In this document: positions 6,201 through 62,055 of the stretch, one piece after another
Numbering within the stretch: the stretch's first letter is position 1
How the letters are laid out: each line of letters begins with the position of its first letter
Translations under genes and position numbers: made by a program
Notes under the pieces: generated by a model
What the model was told of the DNA's origin: nothing
Database searches by the model: none
The model's input: only the letters and a program-made list of their open reading frames with translations
Assembly (NCBI GenBank): GCA_033852135.1
Contig: JAWSVB010000022.1
Coordinates: forward strand, 101,936-165,935
Length of the DNA: 64,000 bases
Direction of reading: 5' to 3'
DNA from: Gammaproteobacteria bacterium
GTDB lineage: Bacteria; Pseudomonadota; Gammaproteobacteria; QZLD01

Positions 6201-7898
6201 ATGAGCTTTGAGGATGGTCTTTCAGCTAAAGTAATTGGGCAGATTGCAATGATGCAAGGTGTTGTAGCACAGCTGCCAGATGAGGTTTCTGTACTTGGTT
6301 TTGTTGCTAAAGGGTTATCCGATATTCCAGGTGTGAAAAAGGTAGATTATGTCTTATTCAATGATGAAGAAACATCAGTATTAGAATATGAAACAGAAGA
6401 ACTAAGGCACATATTTCCAATTGAATATAAGCAATCAAAATACTCATCATTAATATTTCACCTATCTGATAGATCTAAATTTGACCTGTATGCCCCTTAT
6501 ATCGGTAATTTTACCAATGTACTAGCAGTACTGTTTGAGGAGAGGCGTCAGCGCAAATCTAATGAGGCATTGTTAGAAAATCTTGAAGAGTTGGTGGATG
6601 AAAGAACAAAAGAGTTAAAACAAGAGATTGCTGAACGTAAAAATGCAGAGGCTGAGTTAGAGAGAACAAAAGACTACATATCAAATGTAATCGACTCTAT
6701 GCCATCTGCTCTAATATCAGTAAATGAAAACCTTGAAGTAACGCAATGGAATTTAAAAGCGGAGGAGATTACAGGGGTGCCAGCCCCAGATGCTTTTGGG
6801 ATGAAGCTGGATGATGTTTTTCCGCGCATGGGAAAAGAGCTGGAATTAATATCAAACAGTATACAAAACAAAGAGATAAAATTTGAGCAGAAAACAGCAT
6901 ACGAAGCAGAATCAGGTGTAGGTTATGAAGATATAACAATTTACCCTTTAGTAGCGATTGGGATTCAAGGTGCTGTTTTACGTATAGATGATGTCACCAG
7001 TAAAGTGCGTATGGAAGAGATGCTGGTACAAAGTGAGAAGATGCTCTCAATCGGAGGGCTTGCCGCAGGAATGGCGCATGAAATTAACAATCCATTAGCT
7101 GGGATGATGCAAACAGCAAATGTAATGCAAAATCGTTTAGTCGATAATGTTGATATTCCAGCAAATAGAAGAGCGGCAGAGGAGATTGGTGTGGATCTTG
7201 AAGCGATTGTTGGCTTTATGTCGGCTAGAGGAATTCCGCGCATGATACACGCGATAAAAGAGTCTGGTGTAAGGGTAGCTTCAATAGTCAATAATATGCT
7301 GCATTTTGCACAACAATCAGATGATGAAATTAATACAAGTAAAATTGCAGATATAATCGAGAACACTATTGGTTTAGTTTCTACAGATTACAATCTAAAG
7401 AAACAGTACGATTTTAAAAAAATTAATATTATTCGGGAGTTTCAAGAAGATCTACCTGAAATTGAGTGCCACTCATCCAAAATTCAACAGGCCATGTTGA
7501 ATCTATTTAGCAATAGTGCACATGCACTGCAACAAGCTAAAATTGAAAATCCAAAAATAATAATAAGATTAGCGATAGATGAGAAGCAAGATGATAAAGA
7601 TGCAATGGTACGGGTTGAGATTGAAGATAATGGCCCAGGTATTTCCAGTAAGTTAATAGGTAGATTATTCGAACCATTTTATACAACAAAACCTACAGGT
7701 GAGGGAAAAGGGTTAGGTTTAAGTGTTGCATATTTCATAATTACTGAAACTCATAAAGGAAAGATGTGGGTAGAGTCTAATGAGGGGGTAGGCACTAAAT
7801 TCATAATATGTTTGCCAGTAAAGCAAAATGGTAGCGATATAAGTATCGATAGAAATGTAGATAAAAATTCTATAAATTCAATGGATAACAAAGGTTAA
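6201..7898 (+). CDS. Soluble (no TM) histidine kinase: N-terminal domain, coiled coil, PAS, HisKA, HATPase; paralog of HK1/2/4
   Basis: Coiled coil 'LEELVDERTKELKQEIAERKNAEAELERTKDY'. H-box 'SEKMLSIGGLAAGMAHEINNPLAGMMQT'. 'DNGPGIS...GEGKGLGLS'. Confidence 0.88.
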   Translation: MSFEDGLSAKVIGQIAMMQGVVAQLPDEVSVLGFVAKGLSDIPGVKKVDYVLFNDEETSVLEYETEELRHIFPIEYKQSKYSSLIFHLSDRSKFDLYAPYIGNFTNVLAVLFEERRQRKSNEALLENLEELVDERTKELKQEIAERKNAEAELERTKDYISNVIDSMPSALISVNENLEVTQWNLKAEEITGVPAPDAFGMKLDDVFPRMGKELELISNSIQNKEIKFEQKTAYEAESGVGYEDITIYPLVAIGIQGAVLRIDDVTSKVRMEEMLVQSEKMLSIGGLAAGMAHEINNPLAGMMQTANVMQNRLVDNVDIPANRRAAEEIGVDLEAIVGFMSARGIPRMIHAIKESGVRVASIVNNMLHFAQQSDDEINTSKIADIIENTIGLVSTDYNLKKQYDFKKINIIREFQEDLPEIECHSSKIQQAMLNLFSNSAHALQQAKIENPKIIIRLAIDEKQDDKDAMVRVEIEDNGPGISSKLIGRLFEPFYTTKPTGEGKGLGLSVAYFIITETHKGKMWVESNEGVGTKFIICLPVKQNGSDISIDRNVDKNSINSMDNKG

Positions 7899-7903
7899 GT
7901 TAT

Positions 7904-9058
7904 ATGATTAAACTATTTAAAATAATAGCTGTTTTATCATTGTTAGCATTAATCGTAATACTGAATATGCAATCTGCATCTACTGTAAAGATTGGATTAG
8001 TTGCAGATTTAAGTAGTAGAAAAGCCAACCTTGGTGATTCTGTAAGAAATGGGCTGATTCTCGCGATAAATGAGATAAATCAACAAGGCGGTATAAATGG
8101 TCACAAGGTTGAATTATTAGTTCGAGATGGTAAATCTAACGAAGCTATTACCCAGCAACAAGCAACTAATTTAGTTGATAACTGTGTAAATCTAATAGTT
8201 GGACCTGTGCACAGTGCAATGGCAAATTCAGTAATAGAAGCGACTAAAGAAGCAGGTATATTGGTTATAAGTCCAACAGTTTCAACTGATAACCTCTCCG
8301 AAATTGATGATAACTTTTTCCGCATAAATACCAAATCATCCATTCAAGGTAATGACCTTGCAAGAGCATCAAAACTTAGGGGCGATAAGAAAGTATTATT
8401 GGTAGTGGACCAAGATAATAGTGAGTATACCGGGTCAGTAGCTCATGGTTTTAGAGAGAGAGCAAAACTACTGGATTTAGAAGTCATCGGTGAAATAGCT
8501 TTTACTAAGGAGCACGATACTACTAAATTGGTAGATAAAATCATCCAATACAAGGCTGATGCATTAGTCTTTATAACTAATGGCAAAGATGCAGCAAAAA
8601 TTATCCAGCTATATAACAAAGTTAGCAAACTACCAAACTTATATGGTGATATGTGGGCGAAGTGGAGCAATGTTAAAGAGTTTGGAGGTAAAGCTGTAAA
8701 TGGGATGGTTTTAGTTGGCATTAATAAGAATAAACAGAGCCAAGATAAAGAGGTGCAATTTGCCTCATCCTATAAACAGCTTTTTGGTTCAGAGTATACG
8801 ATACCAGCGGTTTATGCGTATGAGGCTGTACAATTATATGCTTTAGGTGCACAAAATGCCTCTAGCTTGGATAGCGATAAAATTAAACAATATATTTTGA
8901 AAATAGAGCAAATAGATGGAGTGGTGGATAACTATAAACTTGATATGTATGGTGATGCAATTCGAGAGTTTTCATATTTCCAAATTAAAGATAATAGATA
9001 TGAAAAGATAAATTTACCCAAAGAGTTACCTATAAAAATAGATAGTGTTAAAGAGTAG
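7904..9058 (+). CDS. Periplasmic binding protein, LivK/Leu-Ile-Val-binding family (Peripla_BP_6-like), signal peptide
   Basis: Signal peptide 'MIKLFKIIAVLSLLALIVILN'. 'VKIGLVADLSSRK...GINGHKVELLVRDGKSN' is typical of type I PBPs. No ABC permease or ATPase genes nearby. Confidence 0.75.
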   Translation: MIKLFKIIAVLSLLALIVILNMQSASTVKIGLVADLSSRKANLGDSVRNGLILAINEINQQGGINGHKVELLVRDGKSNEAITQQQATNLVDNCVNLIVGPVHSAMANSVIEATKEAGILVISPTVSTDNLSEIDDNFFRINTKSSIQGNDLARASKLRGDKKVLLVVDQDNSEYTGSVAHGFRERAKLLDLEVIGEIAFTKEHDTTKLVDKIIQYKADALVFITNGKDAAKIIQLYNKVSKLPNLYGDMWAKWSNVKEFGGKAVNGMVLVGINKNKQSQDKEVQFASSYKQLFGSEYTIPAVYAYEAVQLYALGAQNASSLDSDKIKQYILKIEQIDGVVDNYKLDMYGDAIREFSYFQIKDNRYEKINLPKELPIKIDSVKE

Positions 9059-16629: not shown

Positions 16630-16799
16630 TTTATACCGCTGTTTTGCATAAAATTGCATGTTTTTCAGCTATATAACTTCAAAATATCTCTGCATAAAAC
16701 TACTATTAAAAAATTACAATACTCAAAAATTTAGTTTCGCATAATAAGTGCAATTTTCCTGGACTATACTTTTAATATAGTAATGGATGGAATGGTCTT

Positions 16800-17135
16800 A
16801 TGTGGCGGAAAATTAATCAAGTATATAAAAGGCTTAGTGAGCTTTTTGCTGAGCAAATGGATACATATTGGTCAAGTCTTTCGCTTGCAACAAATCTTCT
16901 TATCATATTGAATATAAGTTTATTTTTTGTAACAGAACTGGTGACAACGCAAGGCTATTATTATACTTTTTACTCATTATTTTGCTTGTTATTTGTTCAG
17001 CTTGGTTTGATACTTCCACTTGGAATGTTAAACCGGCTTTGGTATTACTCTATCTTTTGTTTTGCAGAACTTATTGCTATATATTTTTTAGTAAGCAGTG
17101 TATGGTTTTGGGTTGAAACCAATAAAGTTGTCTAA
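16800..17135 (+). CDS. Hypothetical small membrane protein (doubtful)
   Basis: ORF only. Hydrophobic stretches, AT-rich region, no recognisable motif. Confidence 0.2.
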   Translation: MWRKINQVYKRLSELFAEQMDTYWSSLSLATNLLIILNISLFFVTELVTTQGYYYTFYSLFCLLFVQLGLILPLGMLNRLWYYSIFCFAELIAIYFLVSSVWFWVETNKVV

Positions 17136-17296
17136 TTAAGTATTATTTACTATTTAAGTTTCGGTTAAGTATGGGTTTGGTTTGGCTTTAAAACGTGAAT
17201 AATATAATAAGCAAAAAATTTTAAAAGCGCGCACGGCAAGTTTATCCGAAATAGTTCAGTCGGATTGAGAAAGGCAATAAATATTCAGATGAAGTC

Positions 17297-17327
17297 AAAA
17301 GGGGAAACCATAACTGCTTTTCCCCTA
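17297..17327 (-). terminator. Rho-independent terminator of the csp gene
   Basis: The minus strand reads GGGGAAA-loop-TTTCCCC followed by TTTT, about 35 nt downstream of the csp stop. Confidence 0.8.
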
Positions 17328-17359
17328 AGTACTAGACTCGAATTATGGTGATGGTTCAG

Positions 17360-17584
17360 CTATGCCGGTGCAGGCGCTGATGCTGCTACATCTTCTGCTA
17401 ATAGACCTTTTGGGCCATTTGTTATGCAAAACTCAACAGGCTGTCCATCTTTTAAAGACTTATGACCTTCGCCTCTTATAGCTTTATAGTGCACAAAAAT
17501 ATCATCGTGCCCCTCTTTAACAATAAACCCATATCCCTTGGCGTTGTCGAACCATTTAACTGTTCCAAATACACGATCAGACAT
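17360..17584 (-). CDS. Cold-shock protein, CspA family
   Basis: '[15 protein letters not shown]...DIFVHYKAI' carries the RNP1/RNP2 motifs of the cold-shock domain. Confidence 0.93.
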
Positions 17585-18027
17585 AATAACTCCCTAGCTC
17601 TTAAACAATATAAAAACATAGTAAAATTTCTAGGTAGGAATTGATTAAGCAAACTGCCTAATGTAGACAATTTAAAAATAACAACAAAAAACATTCACAA
17701 AATGTGATGCTGTTTTTTCAGTTTGTTAACAAATCCCTTTTGCCCATTAATCCTTTACTATAAAAACTAGCATACATTGTTATGTCGCTAACAACAAATA
17801 TATATTAGTAAATAATATTTAATGAAAATATTATGTTTAAAGTAAAAAGTATCGTAACTGATTGATTTGTATTGCTCTAAGCTGTTTTATCTCTTTGTTA
17901 ATCTATTGAAGATTAAGTGTATTTTTGTGTTATATCTGAGTGCATAAAATGCAGCATATAACTACAAAAAGTGTTATACGCTGCTGATTTCTATAATGTT
18001 AATTTATTACAGTTTTATATGAATGCT

Positions 18028-29502: not shown

Positions 29503-29537
29503 AAAAAGCCTACCTAATAAAATTAGGTAGGCTTTTT
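29503..29537. terminator. Bidirectional intrinsic terminator
   Basis: AAAAAGCCTACCTAAT-loop-ATTAGGTAGGCTTTTT, between converging genes. Confidence 0.85.
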
Positions 29538-48467: not shown

Positions 48468-49868
48468 ATGGCCCACCTGGAAATATCAAAAATTTGGCAA
48501 GGGGAAATCAAATTAGGTGATAAAATCTCAATTAAAGGTTGGGTTAGGACTAGGCGTGATTCAAAGGCTGGTTTGTCATTTTTAGCTATCCACGATGGCT
48601 CCTGTTTTGACACAGTTCAAGTTGTTGCCTTAAATACTTTATCCAACTATGAAAACGATATAAAACGCTTAACTGCTGGGTGCTCAGTTGCAATAGATGG
48701 TGTTATCAAAGAGTCAGAGGGAAGTGGGCAGCAATACGAGATTGAGGCAGAAAAAATTGAGGTTATTGGTTGGGTGGAAAACCCAGATACATACCCTGTT
48801 TCTGCAAAACGTCATACACTTGAATACCTCAGGGAATATGCGCACCTAAGACCACGAACTAACATAATCGGTGCAGTTACAAGAGTTAGACATTGCCTAT
48901 CACAGGCGATACATAGCTTTTTCCATGAGAATGGGTTCTATTGGGTGCATACGCCTATAGTTACAGCAAGTGACTGTGAAGGTGCTGGGGAGATGTTTCA
49001 GGTCAGTACTTTAGATATAAATAATCCAGCAAGAACTGATTCCGGAGAAATTGACTATAGCAAAGATTTTTTTGGTAAAGAGGCATATCTAACAGTATCA
49101 GGTCAGTTAAACGTTGAGACGTATTGTTGTGCAATGTCAAAGGTGTATACATTTGGCCCAACATTTAGAGCTGAAAACTCAAATACAAGCAGGCATCTAT
49201 CTGAGTTTTGGATGATAGAACCAGAAGTTGCCTTTGCAGATCTTGATGATGTCGCTAAATTAGCTGAGCAAATGCTTAAGTATATTGCAGAAAGAGTATT
49301 AAAAGAGCGCAGAGATGATATGGAGTTTTTTGCGCAAAGGGTTGATAAAGAAGCTATTTCAAGGCTTGAAAAGTTGCTTAATTCTGACTTTGTTGAAATT
49401 GACTACAGCGAAGCAATAGATATTTTAGAAAAGTCAGAACAAGATTTTGAGTACGAGGTAAAGTGGGGAATTGATCTTCAGTCAGAGCATGAAAGGTATC
49501 TATGTGAGCAACACTTTGATGCTCCAGTGATAGTGAAAAACTATCCAAGGGATATAAAAGCATTTTACATGCGCCAAAATGATGATGGTAAAACCGTAGC
49601 AGCAATGGATGTCATAGCTCCTGGAATAGGCGAAATAATAGGTGGAAGCCAGCGAGAAGAGCGTTTAGATAAATTCGATGCCAGGCTTGATGAGATGGGG
49701 CTGAGTAAAGATGATTATTGGTGGTACCGAGATCTTAGGCGTTATGGAACTGTTCCGCATGCTGGGTTTGGGTTAGGGTTTGAGCGTTTGATCTCTTATG
49801 TTACTGGGGTGAAGAATGTGCGTGATGTTATTCCGTTTCCTAGAACTCCAGGCCACGCCAACTTCTAA
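48468..49868 (+). CDS. asnS: Asparagine--tRNA ligase
   Basis: N-terminal OB fold; class II motifs '[19 protein letters not shown]' and '[15 protein letters not shown]'; 466 aa. Confidence 0.93.
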
Positions 49869-50039
49869 ATTCTTGTTTATTTTCCCAATATCTGTGTTGC
49901 AACTCTGCCTTAGGTTGGTCATTTACTAGAAGTAAACTCCCACCCTAAGTGCTCGTTGCGCCTTGATCTTGAAAAAATATCCTGCGAATTAAAGTTCTTT
50001 ATTATTGTTTTTTACTTCACCATTTAATGGTGTTTCCTA

Positions 50040-50420
50040 ATCCACGATTCCGGTTGGTTTACACAGCCATTATCCTTCCTACGTAGAATAACGTCATATA
50101 TGGACTTGATCCGGGATCCAGCAAACGAACGTTTGCCGCGCAAAGCGCGAATCGCACATGAATTTCAAAAAACTAATTTCCCCCGGACAGCAGTGAGTTA
50201 AAGCAGGGACATGGATAACGCATGTGCCAAAGATACTAAAGAAAAGTATCTCGCCTATTGGTGCGAGAACCAAGTAAACAAAAAAATGTTTCTCGTTCCC
50301 ACGGTCTCCGTGGGAATGCATATTTCGTCTAGTGATAACCATGGTGGCAAGCCTATCTGTTTTCCCGATCTAATAACTAAAACATTTTCCACACGTGTGG
50401 AAAATTCATTCCTGATCGTA
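50040..50420. other. GC-rich, hairpin-dense non-coding island of unknown nature (possible structured ncRNA or degraded foreign element)
   Basis: No convincing ORF. At least five perfect or near-perfect stem-loops: CGCGCAAAGCGCG, GATACT-aaagaaa-AGTATC, CTCGC-ctattggtg-GCGAG, TTCCCACGG-tct-CCGTGGGAA, TTTTCCACACGTGTGGAAAA. Local GC is visibly higher than the flanks. Confidence 0.4.
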
Positions 50421-50643
50421 CCTGTGTAGTCTTAAAACAAACCAAACGGCATTTTAAAATGTGACAATATACCCATATTTGTCATGCGCTGTTTGGTAAA
50501 AGTGACAAAAAAAGTAACTCATTGTGATAACTGGTAATTGTTGACAGACAAAAGGGGGTAAAAGTCGTAAATTGGTTGGCACATATATTGATGACATATT
50601 TATTTATATAGTAAAAATCTCCGGAATAAAATTGGGGGCAGTT

Positions 50644-51099
50644 ATGAGTATGGATATGCAATACAGTACAAGTGTTAACTGTAAGAAAGAGAAAAAACTT
50701 GAAGCTGATTTTCAGCTTGCTTGCTGCTATCAATATGGGATAGACGGTGATGTATCCTTAAGTAAAGCCTTCTCACGTTATATGAAATGTGCCATGAGTG
50801 GTTACGCTCCAGCACAGAATGCCCTTGGTTTTTTATACCTTTCTGGAGAAGGGGTTGTAAAGGATGAGAAGCTTGCATTTAAATGGTTTCGATCAGCTGC
50901 AGATCAGAACTATCCTGCTGCGCTATTGAATATCAGTTATATGTATATCGATGGGGTTGGAACTGATATAGATATTCAGAAAGGACTAAACTGCATTTAT
51001 GCTGCAGCAAAAGGCGGGTGTGATGATGCCCGTATGACGCTTGAAAATAAAATTGCAGAGTGCATGAATATCGATATTGAAGCTATTTTTCATGGTTGA
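50644..51099 (+). CDS. Sel1-like repeat (TPR-family) protein
   Basis: ATG at 50644 after GGGGGCAGTT. Repeats 'AQNALGFLYLSGEGVVKDEKLAFKWFRSAADQNYPAALLNISYMY' are the Sel1 consensus. Confidence 0.7.
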   Translation: MSMDMQYSTSVNCKKEKKLEADFQLACCYQYGIDGDVSLSKAFSRYMKCAMSGYAPAQNALGFLYLSGEGVVKDEKLAFKWFRSAADQNYPAALLNISYMYIDGVGTDIDIQKGLNCIYAAAKGGCDDARMTLENKIAECMNIDIEAIFHG

Positions 51100-51117
51100 A
51101 ATATTGTGCGGTAAGTT

Positions 51118-51717
51118 TTAGCTTTCAGCGCTTGTGCCAAAGCAAATGGTCTCGTATCTCTCAACGTAAATATTATCTGACCAATAATTATGTGGCAGAC
51201 CTGCTTTCAACAATAGGTTTTGTAGGAACTCCTCTTTTTCTGGCAGTGACTCCCAGACAGATGGTAGAAATGTCCCACGCTTGAATCCTTCAGAAAGAAT
51301 TAGTCCATCAACTCCTGGCCTTATTTGTTCCAATAAATTTGCTCTATCTTTAAATATTATTGGCTCTGGTGGAGTAAGAATCGATATATCTATTTCAAGT
51401 TGGTTTAGCTCTTCTGCCTTTAGTTGTGGGAACCGTGGGTCGTTAAAAGCTGATGAGTAGGCGTTTTCTGCGATATCTATTACAAGTGGATGGTGGGCAA
51501 TAAGGGAACCGATACACCCTCTTAGTTGCTTATTTTTATGTAGAGTTACAAAAGTTGCTAATTGTTCTGTTAGTTTATCGTTATAACTATCTAAATTAAC
51601 CTGAAATGGTTTTCCAAGTTCTAACCCATTTTCTATAGATTGTTTTGCAAGATTAAGTAGCCTGCTTTTTTCATCATCAGTGTAATTATTCAAAGGTATA
51701 TGCTCCATATCCAACAA
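51118..51717 (-). CDS. AMMECR1 domain protein (AmmeMemoRadiSam system protein A)
   Basis: 'LRGCIGSL' is the hallmark AMMECR1 motif; 199 aa. Overlaps the upstream MEMO1-like gene by ~30 nt. Confidence 0.85.
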   Translation of the reverse strand: MLDMEHIPLNNYTDDEKSRLLNLAKQSIENGLELGKPFQVNLDSYNDKLTEQLATFVTLHKNKQLRGCIGSLIAHHPLVIDIAENAYSSAFNDPRFPQLKAEELNQLEIDISILTPPEPIIFKDRANLLEQIRPGVDGLILSEGFKRGTFLPSVWESLPEKEEFLQNLLLKAGLPHNYWSDNIYVERYETICFGTSAES

Positions 51718-52474
51718 CGCTATCTTTAGTTCCTGATGTATCGCCCGAGTTGTTTATTTGAATTTTTTTTGCAGTCCAATTTCGCTGCCTTGCTACTTCT
51801 AATAACACATTTATTGCATGGCATCCGCAGGCTTCTTTTCCGGCTATAGCTGATTTGTTTAAAGATAATATTTTTTCACTGGTGCAATTGTCTATTTCAA
51901 CTGCTTCATCATAACTGTGAAAATGGCTTAGATCAGAACTTACGATTGTTATCGTATTTTTATCATCAATTATTCTGGATAGTGCGTTTGCAGCACTAAC
52001 ATAGTCGGTATCACTTATTAGGATAGGAATTATTGAGAACTCTTTATTGGTGATACTTTGTAAAAATGGCAATTGGGTTTCTAGGCTATGTTCGTGTAGA
52101 TGAGCTGCATCATTAAAGTTGAAATCTGGTATGGAGCATAATTGATTTATTGTTTGCTTATCTAATGGGATATTTCCTAGGGGGGTATTAAAAAAATCTG
52201 CATGACTTAATGCCATACCGTTAAATCCAACCCTGTGCGTTGGGCCGAGTAATAAAACTCTAGAAAATGGAATGTCATTAAGTATTGAGTATACAGAGGC
52301 TGCAACTTCCCCTGAATAAATGTAGCCAGCGTGTGGTGCGATGATGGCTTTAGGGTGGGGTGGATTAGTATCTTTGTTGGTTCTTTGTAGTAGCTTTTTA
52401 ATGAGTAACTCAAGTTCTAATTTTGAGCTTGGATAAAAGCTACCAGATACTGCAGGAACTCTAATTATTGGCAT
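51686..52474 (-). CDS. MEMO1 family protein (AmmeMemoRadiSam system protein B)
   Basis: 'IIAPHAGYIYSGEVAASVYS' and 'LLLGPTH' are MEMO1/extradiol-dioxygenase-class-III-like motifs; 262 aa. Confidence 0.82.
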   Translation of the reverse strand: MPIIRVPAVSGSFYPSSKLELELLIKKLLQRTNKDTNPPHPKAIIAPHAGYIYSGEVAASVYSILNDIPFSRVLLLGPTHRVGFNGMALSHADFFNTPLGNIPLDKQTINQLCSIPDFNFNDAAHLHEHSLETQLPFLQSITNKEFSIIPILISDTDYVSAANALSRIIDDKNTITIVSSDLSHFHSYDEAVEIDNCTSEKILSLNKSAIAGKEACGCHAINVLLEVARQRNWTAKKIQINNSGDTSGTKDSVVGYGAYTFE

Positions 52475-52637
52475 AATATATATGTCCTAGCTGAATTTTT
52501 CGTATTTAAGAAGTATAGTTTTATTATTGAGGTATTCAAATAATGCCCTCAGTATGGACAACTGGTGAGATAAAAAATAAATTCGCACTATTCTTATATG
52601 AATGGATTCATAGTTTTATGTGTCAGGAGGATTGTTT

Positions 52638-53693
52638 GTGCAGACTAAATATTGGCATAAAAGGGATGATGGTAAAGTTTGTTGTGATCTTTGTCCGCGA
52701 TATTGTGTATTAAAAACTGGTCAACGTGGGTTTTGCTTTATACGGGAGAATATAAACTCGGAAATGGTTTTAACCTCTTATGGTAAATCAACAGGGTTCT
52801 GTATCGATCCAGTAGAGAAAAAACCACTGAATCATTTTTTCCCAGGAACTCCAGTTTTATCCTTTGGGACAGCCGGTTGTAATTTGGGTTGTAAGTTTTG
52901 TCAAAATTGGGATATCAGTAAATCGCATGAAGAATTGATTCTTTCAGCTAAAGCATCTCCTGAGGAGATTGCTCACGTTGCAAAAGGGTATAAGTGTAAG
53001 AGTGTAGCTTTTACTTATAATGATCCGGTGATATTTCATGAGTATGCTGTAGATACTGCAATAGCTTGTAGGGAGAATGGAGTAAAGGCAATAGCCGTTA
53101 CCGCAGGGTATATTAACCCTGAACCACGTAAAGATTTTTTTGCTGCTATGGATGCTGCAAATATCGATCTTAAGGGGTTTACAGATGAATTTTATAAAAA
53201 CTATACAAACGCTCACTTAGCAAATGTGCTCGATACTTTGCAATATGTAAAACATGAAACCAATACTTGGTTAGAAATTACTAACTTATTGATACCCGAT
53301 GCCAATGATTCTTCAGCTGAAATAGAGCAAATGACAAAATGGATATATGAAAATTTGGGGGGGGATGTGCCGCTTCATTTTTCTGCATTTCACCCTGCAT
53401 TTCAAATGATGGACGGCCAGCGTACTCCACCATCCACCTTGTTTAAAGCAAGGGATATTGCGTTAAAGAATGGGATTAAATATGTATATACAGGCAATAT
53501 AGCTGATACAGCTAGTACCAGTACATATTGTGATAATTGTGGCGAGTTGTTAATAGAAAGAGAGTCTTATGAGATAAGTAAATGGTCTATGATGTCTGGG
53601 GCAAGATGTTCAAAATGTAATAATGAAATTCCAGGGTATTTTGAAGATAGACCAGGAAAGTGGGGGAATAAAAGCGCGCCGATTAAGTTTTGA
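52638..53693 (+). CDS. AmmeMemoRadiSam system radical SAM enzyme (PFL-activase-like)
   Basis: GTG at 52638 sits 7 nt after a perfect AGGAGG (the listed ORF starts at an upstream GTG at 52620). CxxxCxxC 'CNLGCKFC'. N-terminal Cys cluster 'CCDLCPRYC' and C-terminal 'CDNCG...CSKC'. Confidence 0.85.
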   Translation: MQTKYWHKRDDGKVCCDLCPRYCVLKTGQRGFCFIRENINSEMVLTSYGKSTGFCIDPVEKKPLNHFFPGTPVLSFGTAGCNLGCKFCQNWDISKSHEELILSAKASPEEIAHVAKGYKCKSVAFTYNDPVIFHEYAVDTAIACRENGVKAIAVTAGYINPEPRKDFFAAMDAANIDLKGFTDEFYKNYTNAHLANVLDTLQYVKHETNTWLEITNLLIPDANDSSAEIEQMTKWIYENLGGDVPLHFSAFHPAFQMMDGQRTPPSTLFKARDIALKNGIKYVYTGNIADTASTSTYCDNCGELLIERESYEISKWSMMSGARCSKCNNEIPGYFEDRPGKWGNKSAPIKF

Positions 53694-53794
53694 ATTTCAA
53701 GGTGATAAATATTGATTAATATTTAAGCCGTTAGCACTGAAAATTATTTAAACTAATAATTATCGGAGTGTGAACGGCTTAAATGATATTTCGC

Positions 53795-58861: not shown

Positions 58862-58996
58862 AAGATTCTGAGTAAACAAACAGTTGTAAAACTTTTGTAA
58901 CAATAGGGTTGCTTCAAAGGAAAAAATTATAAAATAATGGTGTTGAAAAGCTTGACACAAAGGCGATTCTGACTAAAATACACCACATGAATTGAC

Positions 58997-59072
<76 letters not shown>

Positions 59073-59153
59073 ATATTCAAAGGCCCTGGTAAATCCAGGG
59101 TTTTTTAGTATAGAAGTTTATTTAAGGTTTATACTGAAACTGCACCAACTCAA

Positions 59154-59227
59154 GGCTAGGTAGCAAAGTGGTTATGCAGCGGCCTGCAAAGCCGTAGACG
59201 CCGGTTCGATTCCGGCTCTAGCCTCCA
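59154..59227 (+). tRNA. tRNA-Cys (anticodon GCA)
   Basis: GGCTAGGTAGCAAAGTGG...CCTGCAAAG...GGTTCGATTCCGGCTCTAGCCTCCA. Confidence 0.9.
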
Positions 59228-59232
59228 AATTC

Positions 59233-59320
59233 GGGGATGTGGTGGAATTGGTAGACACGAGAGACTTAAAATCTCTTGGCTATTGCGGCCGTGCCGGTTC
59301 GATTCCGGCCATCCCCACCA
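59233..59320 (+). tRNA. tRNA-Leu (anticodon TAA), class II with long variable arm
   Basis: GGGGATGTGGTGGAATTGGTAGACAC...CTTAAAAT...GGTTCGATTCCGGCCATCCCCACCA. Confidence 0.9.
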
Positions 59321-59348
59321 TTAGTAAAGCTTTTCTCTACAGAGAAAA

Positions 59349-59388
59349 GACATAAAAAAACCAGCTGATTTGCTGGTTTTTTTATGTC
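59349..59388. terminator. Strong bidirectional intrinsic terminator (17-bp perfect inverted repeat)
   Basis: GACATAAAAAAACCAGC-tgattt-GCTGGTTTTTTTATGTC, between the tRNA operon end and the converging ligase gene. Confidence 0.9.
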
Positions 59389-59473
59389 TGAATTTTATGG
59401 GTAAGCTGCGTGAGTTTTCCAGTCTCGTGGGTTTTCCATAGATGGTTGTTAGAGAAAAAAGGTACTTACCGAT

Positions 59474-61033: not shown

Positions 61034-61220
61034 ATTAAATATTTCCCGTAAACCATTCCTAGCTTAAGGTTATTGCATAAAATGCCTATAAGCAAGGCTA
61101 TGGGCTTATAAATTTGCTGAAATTTACTAATCACCATTTAGCATGAAAAATATAGCTGGATTATTGAGGGTATTGGCTAAATAGCTTTGGATTAGAACTA
61201 AGGATATTTGTTACTTAATT

Positions 61221-61250
61221 AAAAAACCCCCTCCTTAATAAGGAGGGGGT
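61221..61250 (-). terminator. Minus-strand intrinsic terminator in the leader of the ligase gene (attenuator, or 3' end of an sRNA)
   Basis: The minus strand reads CCCCCTCCTTATTAAGGAGGGGG followed by TTTTTT. A second GC hairpin (GGCGACG...CGTCGCC, 61259-61287) lies immediately upstream on the same strand. Confidence 0.6.
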
Positions 61251-61711
61251 AAAGTAAGGGGCGACGTAGCTAGGATTGTCGTCGCCACTTGGAGGAGCTG
61301 GTAAATTCATTATTGCAGTTACGCCAAATGCTGCAAAGCAACATACTAGTCGCATCAACCTTCTCAGTCAAGTTGTTTTTGGGTATGAAAATTTATTAAA
61401 TCGTAAGAGTCGCTAAGCGGTTGTGACTATACGCTATAAATTATGAGTAAAAGGGTAAAGCCCATAAGTATAGGTCGTTCATTAAATTGTCCATAGGCAC
61501 ATTATACATTTAAAATTAGTTTGATCAAAATATTAATAGAAATTAATAGTGTAGGTGCAGGTTGAGATACAGCTTAGTAGGACGGAATAAATTAGCTATG
61601 AATTATTAGCCGGAGTATAAAATCGAATTAATTACGATTGAAATATCTGCATAAAGATATATGATCACAATTAGTGTTAGTTTACCCACCTTTTTATACC
61701 TGTCGGGAGAT

Positions 61712-62044
61712 ATGATGAAGTTTATTTTTCTGGTTATTGCTTCAATAGTTTTAATTGTGCTTGGGATGAGTTTTTACATGCTTAATAATGAAGCTGTTAA
61801 TGTTGATTTATATTTTTGGAAACCAGAGGAGCCCACACAGTTGGCGTTAGTTATGTTAATAACACTTGCTGTTGGTGTCTTAATTGGTTTTTTTGCTTCA
61901 TTGAGTATGGTCTTTACAAATAAGAGCGAAATTAGAAGATTGAAAAAAATTCAAAAATCTAATGAAGAAGAACTAACTAATTTAAGAAATATGCCATTAA
62001 AAGATAGTGGTATTAGTTCAGATGTAATAGAAGCGGGCAGCTGA
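61712..62044 (+). CDS. lapA: Lipopolysaccharide assembly protein A (YciS/DUF1049)
   Basis: Two TM helices 'FIFLVIASIVLIVLGMSFYML' and 'LALVMLITLAVGVLIGFFA'. Directly precedes lapB and pyrF as in E. coli. The listed ORF is extended upstream to 61661. Confidence 0.8.
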   Translation: MMKFIFLVIASIVLIVLGMSFYMLNNEAVNVDLYFWKPEEPTQLALVMLITLAVGVLIGFFASLSMVFTNKSEIRRLKKIQKSNEEELTNLRNMPLKDSGISSDVIEAGS

Positions 62045-62055
62045 GTGAATATCTA

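Follow-up and report, generated by a model that had tools for sequence, protein, structure and literature searches.

The question raised by this locus is what has come to lie between asnS and the Sel1-repeat gene downstream of it in a 64,000-nucleotide stretch of DNA (hereafter the window, the whole stretch that was analysed) from an uncultured AT-rich gammaproteobacterial lineage. A preliminary description had marked 49990–50430 as a GC-rich, hairpin-dense, non-coding island and had offered three candidates for it: a structured non-coding RNA, the relic of a retron or defence island without its protein gene, or an insertion resembling a miniature inverted-repeat transposable element (MITE). 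The segment is real and non-coding. We consider it probable, with appreciable room for doubt, that the island is a lineage-specific non-coding mosaic of decaying palindromes of the repetitive extragenic palindrome (REP) type at a point where the spacer between asnS and Sel1 is hypervariable. On sequence homology, at least two of the palindromes can be assigned to REP families, one of the kind that flanks genes for REP-associated tyrosine transposases (RAYTs) and is presumed to be mobilised by these enzymes, the other CGTC-tagged, and both copies look immobile and decaying. The spacer measures 775 bp (49868 to 50644) and, with the ends of the island taken from pairwise BLAST and a multiple alignment of asnS–Sel1 spacers, the locus reads as follows.

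48468–49868, + strand: asnS, the upstream flank of the spacer
49869–49991, + strand: imperfect-palindromic repeat unit of about 120 nt (ATTCT…GAATTA), like elements of the enterobacterial repetitive intergenic consensus (ERIC) or MITE type, beginning right after the asnS stop codon
49992–50431, no strand: the island, a non-coding segment
50432–50643, + strand: Sel1 upstream block (probable promoter/operator), outside the island, aligning in L082, L083, L084, L110, L089b, L091 and L111
50644–51099, + strand: Sel1-repeat gene of 151 aa, the downstream flank (Pfam Sel1, E = 7e-19)

Both flanking genes are thus where the preliminary description had them, and the neighbourhood comprises GGDEF, asnS, Sel1, AMMECR1, Memo and radical SAM genes. 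The island itself measures about 390–440 bp, depending on the relative with which it is compared. Relatives were gathered by an AsnS protein search together with exact-protein look-ups, and their AsnS identity ran from 98% down to 84%; a scan of a genome collection with AsnS returned distant taxa only, at no more than 73% identity among the matches listed. All fetched relatives keep the GGDEF–asnS–Sel1 synteny, and at the position of the island they carry the following (handles denote individual loci or contigs).

L082, AsnS 98%: whole spacer 97.8% identical, island 97.5%
L081, AsnS identical: partial contig carrying the island
L083, AsnS 96%: 46 bp of unrelated sequence where the window has 49992–50431
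L084 and L110, AsnS 93%: about 46–70 unrelated bp in place of about 49965/49990–50377; the 22-bp palindrome described below is kept with one mismatch
L111–113, AsnS 84%: a different filler of about 150 bp
L091 and L092, AsnS 84%: a 286-bp spacer with a clean terminator
L089, AsnS 85%: a REP cluster and three extra genes

The island is therefore carried only by the window, L082 and the partial contig L081, and the relatives lacking it (L083, L084, L110, L111–113 and L091/92) retain asnS, Sel1 and the Sel1 upstream block, with a filler 3' of the ~120-nt repeat unit that differs in every lineage. On these alignments the island is an insertion/deletion polymorphism among close relatives, and the junction downstream of asnS is a hypervariable one that gains and loses repeats and gene cassettes. 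A search for copies in related genomes, suggested in the preliminary description, was thus answered in part: the island recurs in L082 and partially in L081, is missing from the relatives named above, and has no second copy either within the window (self-BLAST) or in ~177 kb of clade DNA. Because relatives without the island keep Sel1 and its upstream block, the island is apparently not needed for Sel1 to be expressed and does not constitute a conserved leader, and the suggestion that it might simply be the long 5' UTR of the Sel1 gene fails on the same observation. The block at 50432–50643 is conserved in all relatives, down to 84% AsnS identity, and holds two AAWGTGACAA motifs (50457–50467 and 50498–50508) and a TGACAA-N11-TTGTCA dyad (~50462–50485); from this pattern it is probably the operator/promoter for an unnamed regulator.

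In L089 the three extra genes between asnS and Sel1 (L089 8153–12724) encode an 865-aa beta-lactamase-fold/Big_7 protein, P-II and an ammonium transporter (Amt), and are preceded by three REP variants at L089 7713–7845.

The ~120-nt unit that adjoins the island resembles an ERIC/MITE-type family. Its central hairpin (49909–49949) has a folding z of −3.85, and an nhmmer profile found one to three tandem copies after asnS in L083, L084, L086 and L089 and an extra copy in another spacer (L089/L090 3931–4053); the coordinates in relatives are 7402–7646 in L084, and 7399–7679 and 3931–4053 in L089. Immediately 3' of this unit the lineages diverge in sequence. Seven short-read contigs (L081, L085, L086, L087, L088, L090 and L114) end 30–273 bp past the asnS stop codon, in or just after such units.

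In this area the window and L082 show 12 differences, all of which fall in 49968–50130, and 50131–50446 is 100% identical. This 316-nt identical run was considered as evidence of constraint and rejected as such, the divergence between the two being patchy (0–19 differences per 100 bp) with other stretches of 200–300 nt also free of differences. The 3' part of asnS (49300–49800) differs from L082 by 8–19% per 100 bp as against ~0–5% in the flanks, which suggests mosaic recombination within a housekeeping gene.

The clearest link between the island and a known repeat family is provided by the hairpin that we call REP-B.

50292–50323, + strand: REP-B, a RAYT-associated (GTAG-type) REP, CTCG-TTCCCACGG-TCT-CCGTGGGAA-TGCATAT
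50296–50316: stem-loop TTCCCACGG/CCGTGGGAA, named in the preliminary description

REP-B lies in the spacer, and its loop of 3 nt tops a perfect stem of 9 bp, or of 11 bp if a G·U pair is counted; its folding z is −5.4 on the + strand and −4.8 on the − strand, and it was flagged as terminator-like on the + strand, the 11-bp stem being followed by a weak U-tract. At eight viral contig loci (L093–L100) the similarity to it extends past the pattern used for the scan, reaching 37 nt at 94.6%, and several of the contigs bearing the hairpin hold more than one copy. The hairpin is also multi-copy, and always unannotated, in replicons of Salinivibrio (13 places in one replicon of 562 kb) and Thiodictyon. 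In Salinivibrio kushneri NZ_CP114587.1, REP-B-type hairpins stand, inverted, on both sides of a 176-aa 'transposase' gene, whose product matches the NCBIfam model for REP-associated tyrosine transposases, NF047646 (92 bits, cut-off 80); by its layout this is a canonical REP–RAYT arrangement. Across 18 members of the family, 98.9% of the stem cells pair and four pairs show compensatory changes, the shuffle and slid controls giving far lower values, although the inner pairs are biased by the hairpin-requiring pattern with which members were picked.

On these matches REP-B is a copy of a RAYT-associated REP family. Like the REPs and REPINs described with RAYTs (PMC2817692, PMC3116915, PMC3733652), it is an extragenic palindrome of ~32 nt that follows a gene, it is nearly identical to inverted hairpins that flank a RAYT in Salinivibrio and recur at up to 13 places per replicon, and its stem is kept across the family by compensatory changes. 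It differs from them in its tag. The − strand of the window copy reads ATAT-GC-ATTCCCACGG, whereas GTAG is found in L093 and L100, and GTAT in Salinivibrio and L089, and the GTAG/GTAT tag is the RAYT cleavage motif (PMC3733652). With ATAT in place of GTAG or a close variant, we regard the window copy as a degenerate relic of the family rather than a competent one. It differs from REPINs, too, in being a singleton and not a doublet: the window holds this one copy, the only others in the 177 kb of clade DNA are the three variants at the same locus in L089 (the REP common to the island and the L089 spacer being 87.5% identical over 32 nt), and a tblastn search with a RAYT found none in the spacer, the window or the relatives' loci.

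One of the REP-B-bearing viral contigs, L093 (IMG/VR 3300003177_000099), carries a tandemly duplicated immunity-type module at 311–494 and 1261–1446, beside REP-B-type hairpins, in which C4 antisense RNA, isrK and c4-a1b1 are each present twice.

A second REP, of a different family, and two weaker links to REP-bearing DNA lie further upstream in the island.

50092–50120, + strand: REP-A, a decayed CGTC-tagged REP with tag CGTC (50092–50095), mutated left arm ATATATGGA, loop CTTGA, right arm TCCGGGAT and tail CCA
50121–50155, + strand: two adjacent GC-rich hairpins, GCAAACG-AA-CGTTTGC and CGCGC-AAA-GCGCG, then AATCGC
50176–50195, + strand: motif ATTTCCCCCGGACAGCAGTG, common to L089 (81% over 31 nt, ~50166–50195 against L089 ~7942–7972)

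REPs of the CGTC type have a CGTC (or TGTC/CCTC) tag, a 4–5-nt loop, an 8–9-bp stem opening with A-T pairs and a CCA tail (PMC3733652). The L082 copy, CGTC-ATCCCGGA-CTTGA-TCCGGGAT-CCA, shows every one of these published features, with an 8-bp stem starting AT and a 5-nt loop. In the window the tag, loop and tail are present and the stem is not, since ATATATGGA now faces TCCGGGAT where L082 has ATCCCGGA/TCCGGGAT, and the folding z is −1.2 as compared with −4.5 in L082. The intact L082 form matches intergenic multi-copy sites in Sphingobium, Novosphingobium, Sphingomonas, Rhizobium and others at ~97–100% over 24–30 nt; in sphingomonads the family occupies 4–20 places per replicon, one Novosphingobium copy being 100% identical to it over 24 nt. 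By this comparison the window copy is the decayed relic of a CGTC-tagged REP and, with its arm mutated here and intact in L082, the hairpin would seem to be without constraint in the window's lineage. CGTC-tagged REPs include Neisseria dRS3 and Rickettsia RPE-4/6 (PMC3733652). The L082 unit shares their tag, stem, loop and tail, and its stem-loop is identical to multi-copy units of Novosphingobium and Sphingobium; the differences are that the window copy has lost its hairpin and that its host is gammaproteobacterial and AT-rich, most of the families described coming from Alphaproteobacteria. No further REP-A copy was found in the window or in ~110 kb from relatives. The published view is that CGTC REPs lack a dedicated transposase, with which our null result in a RAYT tblastn search of plasmids for a sphingomonad RAYT agrees.

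The pair of hairpins at 50121–50155 may, as a weak inference, be a second, degenerate CGTC-type unit. They are colinear with a metagenome contig (L109 7790–7900, − strand) that carries a REP, CAAACG..CGTTTG and TGTC-ATTGCGAGCGC-AA-GCGCGGCAAT-CTC; this was the sole contig returned by a metagenome scan with a 20-mer, and because this REP is very abundant the match is possibly due to chance. The L089 counterpart of the ATTTCCCCCGGACAGCAGTG motif sits inside the REP-bearing spacer of L089.

These units lie within DNA that is unusual for the window in both composition and hairpin content. The remaining palindromes of the island, together with the individual stem-loops of the units above, are as follows.

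50018–50032, no strand: perfect palindrome CACCATT-T-AATGGTG, for which no relative was found
50108–50118: stem-loop GATCC-G-GGATC, additional to the preliminary description
50121–50136: stem-loop GCAAACG-AA-CGTTTGC, additional
50137–50149: stem-loop CGCGC-AAA-GCGCG, named in the preliminary description
50209–50225: stem-loop ACATG..CATGT, additional
50231–50251: stem-loop AGATACT/AGTATCT, named in the preliminary description
50249–50268: stem-loop TCTCGC/GCGAGA, named in the preliminary description
50209–50268: the run of three perfect stem-loops ACATG..CATGT, AGATACT..AGTATCT and TCTCGC..GCGAGA, folding z = −3.0
50384–50405, no strand: perfect 22-bp palindrome ATTTTCCACAC/GTGTGGAAAAT, named in the preliminary description, its halves being TTTTCCACA sites in inverted orientation, each compatible with the relaxed DnaA-box pattern TTWTNCACA

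All five stem-loops singled out in the preliminary description are present, and more were found; its 20-bp palindrome is indeed perfect, and is 22 bp long. Its contrast with the AT-rich surroundings also holds, the 41.3% GC of 49990–50430 exceeding the 36.6% average of the window and ranking in the top 7% of windows, although it is modest beside coding DNA; at 38.6% the 775-bp spacer is the richest of 22 spacers longer than 120 bp, a tRNA-bearing spacer excepted. Measured against 441-nt windows across the 64 kb, the island holds 13 perfect stems of at least 5 bp (background 4.7 ± 2.4; top 0.9%), five of at least 7 bp (0.54 ± 0.82; the maximum of the window) and seven with at least three G/C pairs (0.79 ± 1.0), this last count being equalled only by a tRNA cluster at ~58950–59320. 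Its five palindromes with 0–2-nt loops (1.6 ± 1.2 in the background) point to an origin or maintenance at the level of DNA, loops of this length being unusable by RNA hairpins. The sequence GATC is enriched ~4-fold. Relative to dinucleotide shuffles, folding of the whole segment is moderately better, with z = −2.6 (+ strand) and z = −2.35 (− strand). When windows of equal GC serve as the comparison, the + strand has an average fold energy and the − strand ranks in the lowest 2.4%.

Neither protein nor known RNA accounts for the spacer. Its longest open reading frame (ORF) is 82 aa, no credible Pfam match was obtained for three spacer ORFs tested, and a search of 5.8 billion proteins with the six-frame segments of at least 25 aa joined as one query gave no homologue at E ≤ 10, in keeping with the earlier statement that no ORF exceeds about 80 codons and that none has a recognisable product. 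In tblastx against the relatives' loci only the orthologous spacer matched, with no gene remnant. Rfam 15, which covers tmRNA, RNase P, 6S and SRP RNAs, riboswitches and introns among its families, returned only noise for the region at E ≤ 10 (best E = 1.4–9.5; 14–22 bits against thresholds of 39–90), and at gathering thresholds three tRNAs only in the whole window; ARAGORN found neither tRNA nor tmRNA in the spacer. The absence of tmRNA, RNase P, 6S and SRP RNA signatures reported in the preliminary description is thus borne out, and the cmscan comparison that it called for disclosed no known housekeeping RNA. In blastn searches of plasmids and phages the whole island gave only a short REP-B match in Salinivibrio and no phage match, and the sub-segments 50120–50215, 50200–50292 and 50325–50435 gave only chance-level matches. 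Pattern scans of the viral contigs returned no match for the GCAAACG..CGTTTGC/GCGC hairpins and none for TTYCCCCGGACAGYAGTG; the 22-bp palindrome gave two, consisting essentially of the palindrome alone (19–26 nt). Five matches to AGATACT..AGTATCTCGC in the viral contigs lacked flank similarity and were set aside as chance. Strings from the island, searched in the literature, led to primers or nothing.

How, then, do the other explanations fare? A structured small RNA (sRNA) could be drawn as a + strand transcript of ~230 nt reaching from a promoter-like site (50060–50089) as far as the hairpin of REP-B (50294–50318), co-opted as its terminator, or else as a − strand transcript. The hairpin density equal to that of the tRNA cluster, the two negative folding z-scores, the correct order of promoter-like and terminator-like sites on the + strand and the identity of 50131–50446 in both strains that carry it would all suit such a gene, yet the fold energy on the + strand is average against genomic background of equal GC, several of the palindromes combine loops of 0–2 nt with perfect pairing on both strands, a feature at the level of DNA, and promoter-like sites are not enriched (five found, 2.9 ± 1.7 expected), L082 moreover having a T→C change at position 1 of the predicted −35 hexamer. 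With the Rfam noise, the empty tRNA and tmRNA searches, one hairpin decayed in the window and close relatives lacking the whole segment, the structured RNA of the preliminary description is in our view unlikely. Its retron or defence relic has next to no chance of being right: beyond the general resemblance of hairpin-rich non-coding DNA at a variable locus nothing speaks for it, no reverse transcriptase or defence-type gene occurs in the syntenic neighbourhood (Pfam) or among the spacer ORFs, there is no six-frame protein remnant and no retron-type (msr/msd-like) RNA in Rfam, and two of the hairpins are explained as REPs. Retrons differ, besides, in that the island adjoins no reverse-transcriptase gene and the spacer contains no remnant of one. 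The MITE-like insertion comes closest of the three. The island is small, non-coding, strain-variable and rich in inverted repeats, it is an indel bearing palindromes of mobile REP families, and the adjacent 120-nt unit behaves as an ERIC/MITE-type repeat; it differs from MITEs in having no inverted repeat at its ends, no target-site duplication at the L083 or L084 junctions and no second copy in the window or relatives.

A protein-binding site, namely head-to-head DnaA boxes or a dimeric transcription-factor operator controlling Sel1 or titrating a regulator, would account for the 22-bp palindrome if not for the whole segment. The palindrome is perfect, with both halves fitting TTWTNCACA, it lies ~30 bp upstream of the conserved Sel1 block and is kept in L084 and L110 without the rest of the island, being outside the part that L084 lacks, and the GATC enrichment could be read in the same way. 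However, the window shows no enrichment of motifs resembling DnaA boxes (13 found, 9.6 expected), L083 and more distant relatives lack the palindrome although the same Sel1 upstream block is present there, one half-site is mutated in L084, and 22 bp are explained and not 440, so that we hold this reading to be very doubtful. The palindrome, flagged as a weak bidirectional terminator-like hairpin, could equally be such a terminator or an operator. A further possibility concerns history and not present nature: the island might be the non-coding leftover of a larger gene cassette inserted between asnS and Sel1, whose genes were later deleted and whose REP-bearing flank or promoter DNA stayed behind. 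L089 offers a model, with REP variants at the same position followed by the beta-lactamase-fold/Big_7, P-II and Amt genes, and with the REP and the 31-nt motif that it shares with the island; with a GC of about 41–44% the island resembles coding or foreign DNA more closely than it does the spacers nearby, and aryl-polyene-type genes come and go beside Sel1 in relatives. Set against this, no tblastx or protein remnant of any gene was found, those of L089 included, and the pieces in common with L089 are short and in a different order within otherwise unalignable spacers. We regard such a cassette history as possible, if rather improbable; it overlaps with, and is compatible with, the mosaic of decaying REPs. 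Lastly, ~50131–50431, the part of the island lacking known relatives and identical in both carriers, may be a functional unit, either a new structured sRNA with a captured REP terminator or a cis-acting site in single-stranded DNA at which a Y1/HUH enzyme lands or processes the strand. We think this improbable; were it true, a landing pad or processing site of this kind could explain why a junction beside a palindromic repeat unit holds different cargo in every lineage.

The reading that we prefer, a mosaic of decaying REP-type palindromes, has its own difficulties. REP families account for only ~30–35% of the island, a figure that already includes the weak assignment of 50121–50155, and 49992–50090, 50219–50287 and 50324–50431 have no relatives beyond chance. 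The REP units come from different families and lie at irregular intervals, in contrast to those of classical bacterial interspersed mosaic elements (BIMEs), and the three same-locus copies of L089 are the only other REP-A or REP-B copies in the window or the ~110 kb from relatives, with no RAYT seen. The identity of 50131–50446 in the window and L082 could, furthermore, mean that the right-hand part is under constraint. All of these weigh against the preferred interpretation, and it is with them in mind that we state it as probable and no more firmly.

If a decaying REP mosaic is nonetheless what the island represents, its history would have been played out immediately 3' of the ~120-nt palindromic repeat unit, and it may have arrived by REP transposition via single-stranded DNA intermediates, by import with foreign DNA or as what is left of a larger insertion. 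Being downstream of asnS on the same strand, its hairpins would be carried by asnS read-through transcripts. REPs generally act in the termination or 3' stabilisation of transcripts (PMC3733652), and the island hairpins, REP-B especially, could serve as a terminator or 3'-end stabiliser of the asnS mRNA, insulating the Sel1 promoter, although no dedicated function would be required for the island.

Among described systems the BIMEs of E. coli and the intergenic mosaic elements of Neisseria (NIMEs) come to mind. As with these, the island is a compact, strain-variable intergenic cluster of short palindromes, REPs among them, located 3' of a gene, and could serve in termination or mRNA stabilisation. 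It differs in that its two or three recognisable REPs represent different families, lie ~170 bp apart with unrelated hairpins between them and do not alternate in orientation, and in that most of its hairpins are not placed in any repeat family. On this comparison the island is an analogue of BIMEs and NIMEs and not a strict member.

The locus carries a caution, in that a hairpin-dense, GC-enriched spacer can mimic a structured RNA gene and yet consist of strain-specific, decaying selfish palindromes. It also indicates that RAYT-associated and CGTC-tagged REP families both reach an uncultured AT-rich gammaproteobacterial lineage, and that the same REP sequences span distant genera and virus-labelled contigs. 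No long-standing question is opened by the finding; the asnS–Sel1 junction, as a hot spot for repeats and cassettes, should be of use for strain typing and in explaining assembly breaks.

Several minor observations were made nearby and elsewhere in the window. Directly after Sel1, L082 (6508–11076), L083 (6852–11774), L084 (8659–13401) and L111 (5659–7398) carry an aryl-polyene-type cluster composed of Ketoacyl-synt_2, an acyltransferase, two acyl carrier proteins (ACPs), an AMP-binding/ApeI-like protein and a glycosyltransferase, in place of which the window (51100–53700) and L091 have the AMMECR1/Memo/radical-SAM trio; this constitutes a second presence/absence polymorphism at the asnS–Sel1 locus. 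Other long perfect hairpins occur at 59348–59389, 29503–29537 and 61226–61250, with stems of 18, 16 and 12 bp, and are probably terminators or further repeat elements. Two large ORF-poor spacers, at 16630–18027 (1.4 kb) and 61034–62055 (1.0 kb), have a GC content of 31–33%.

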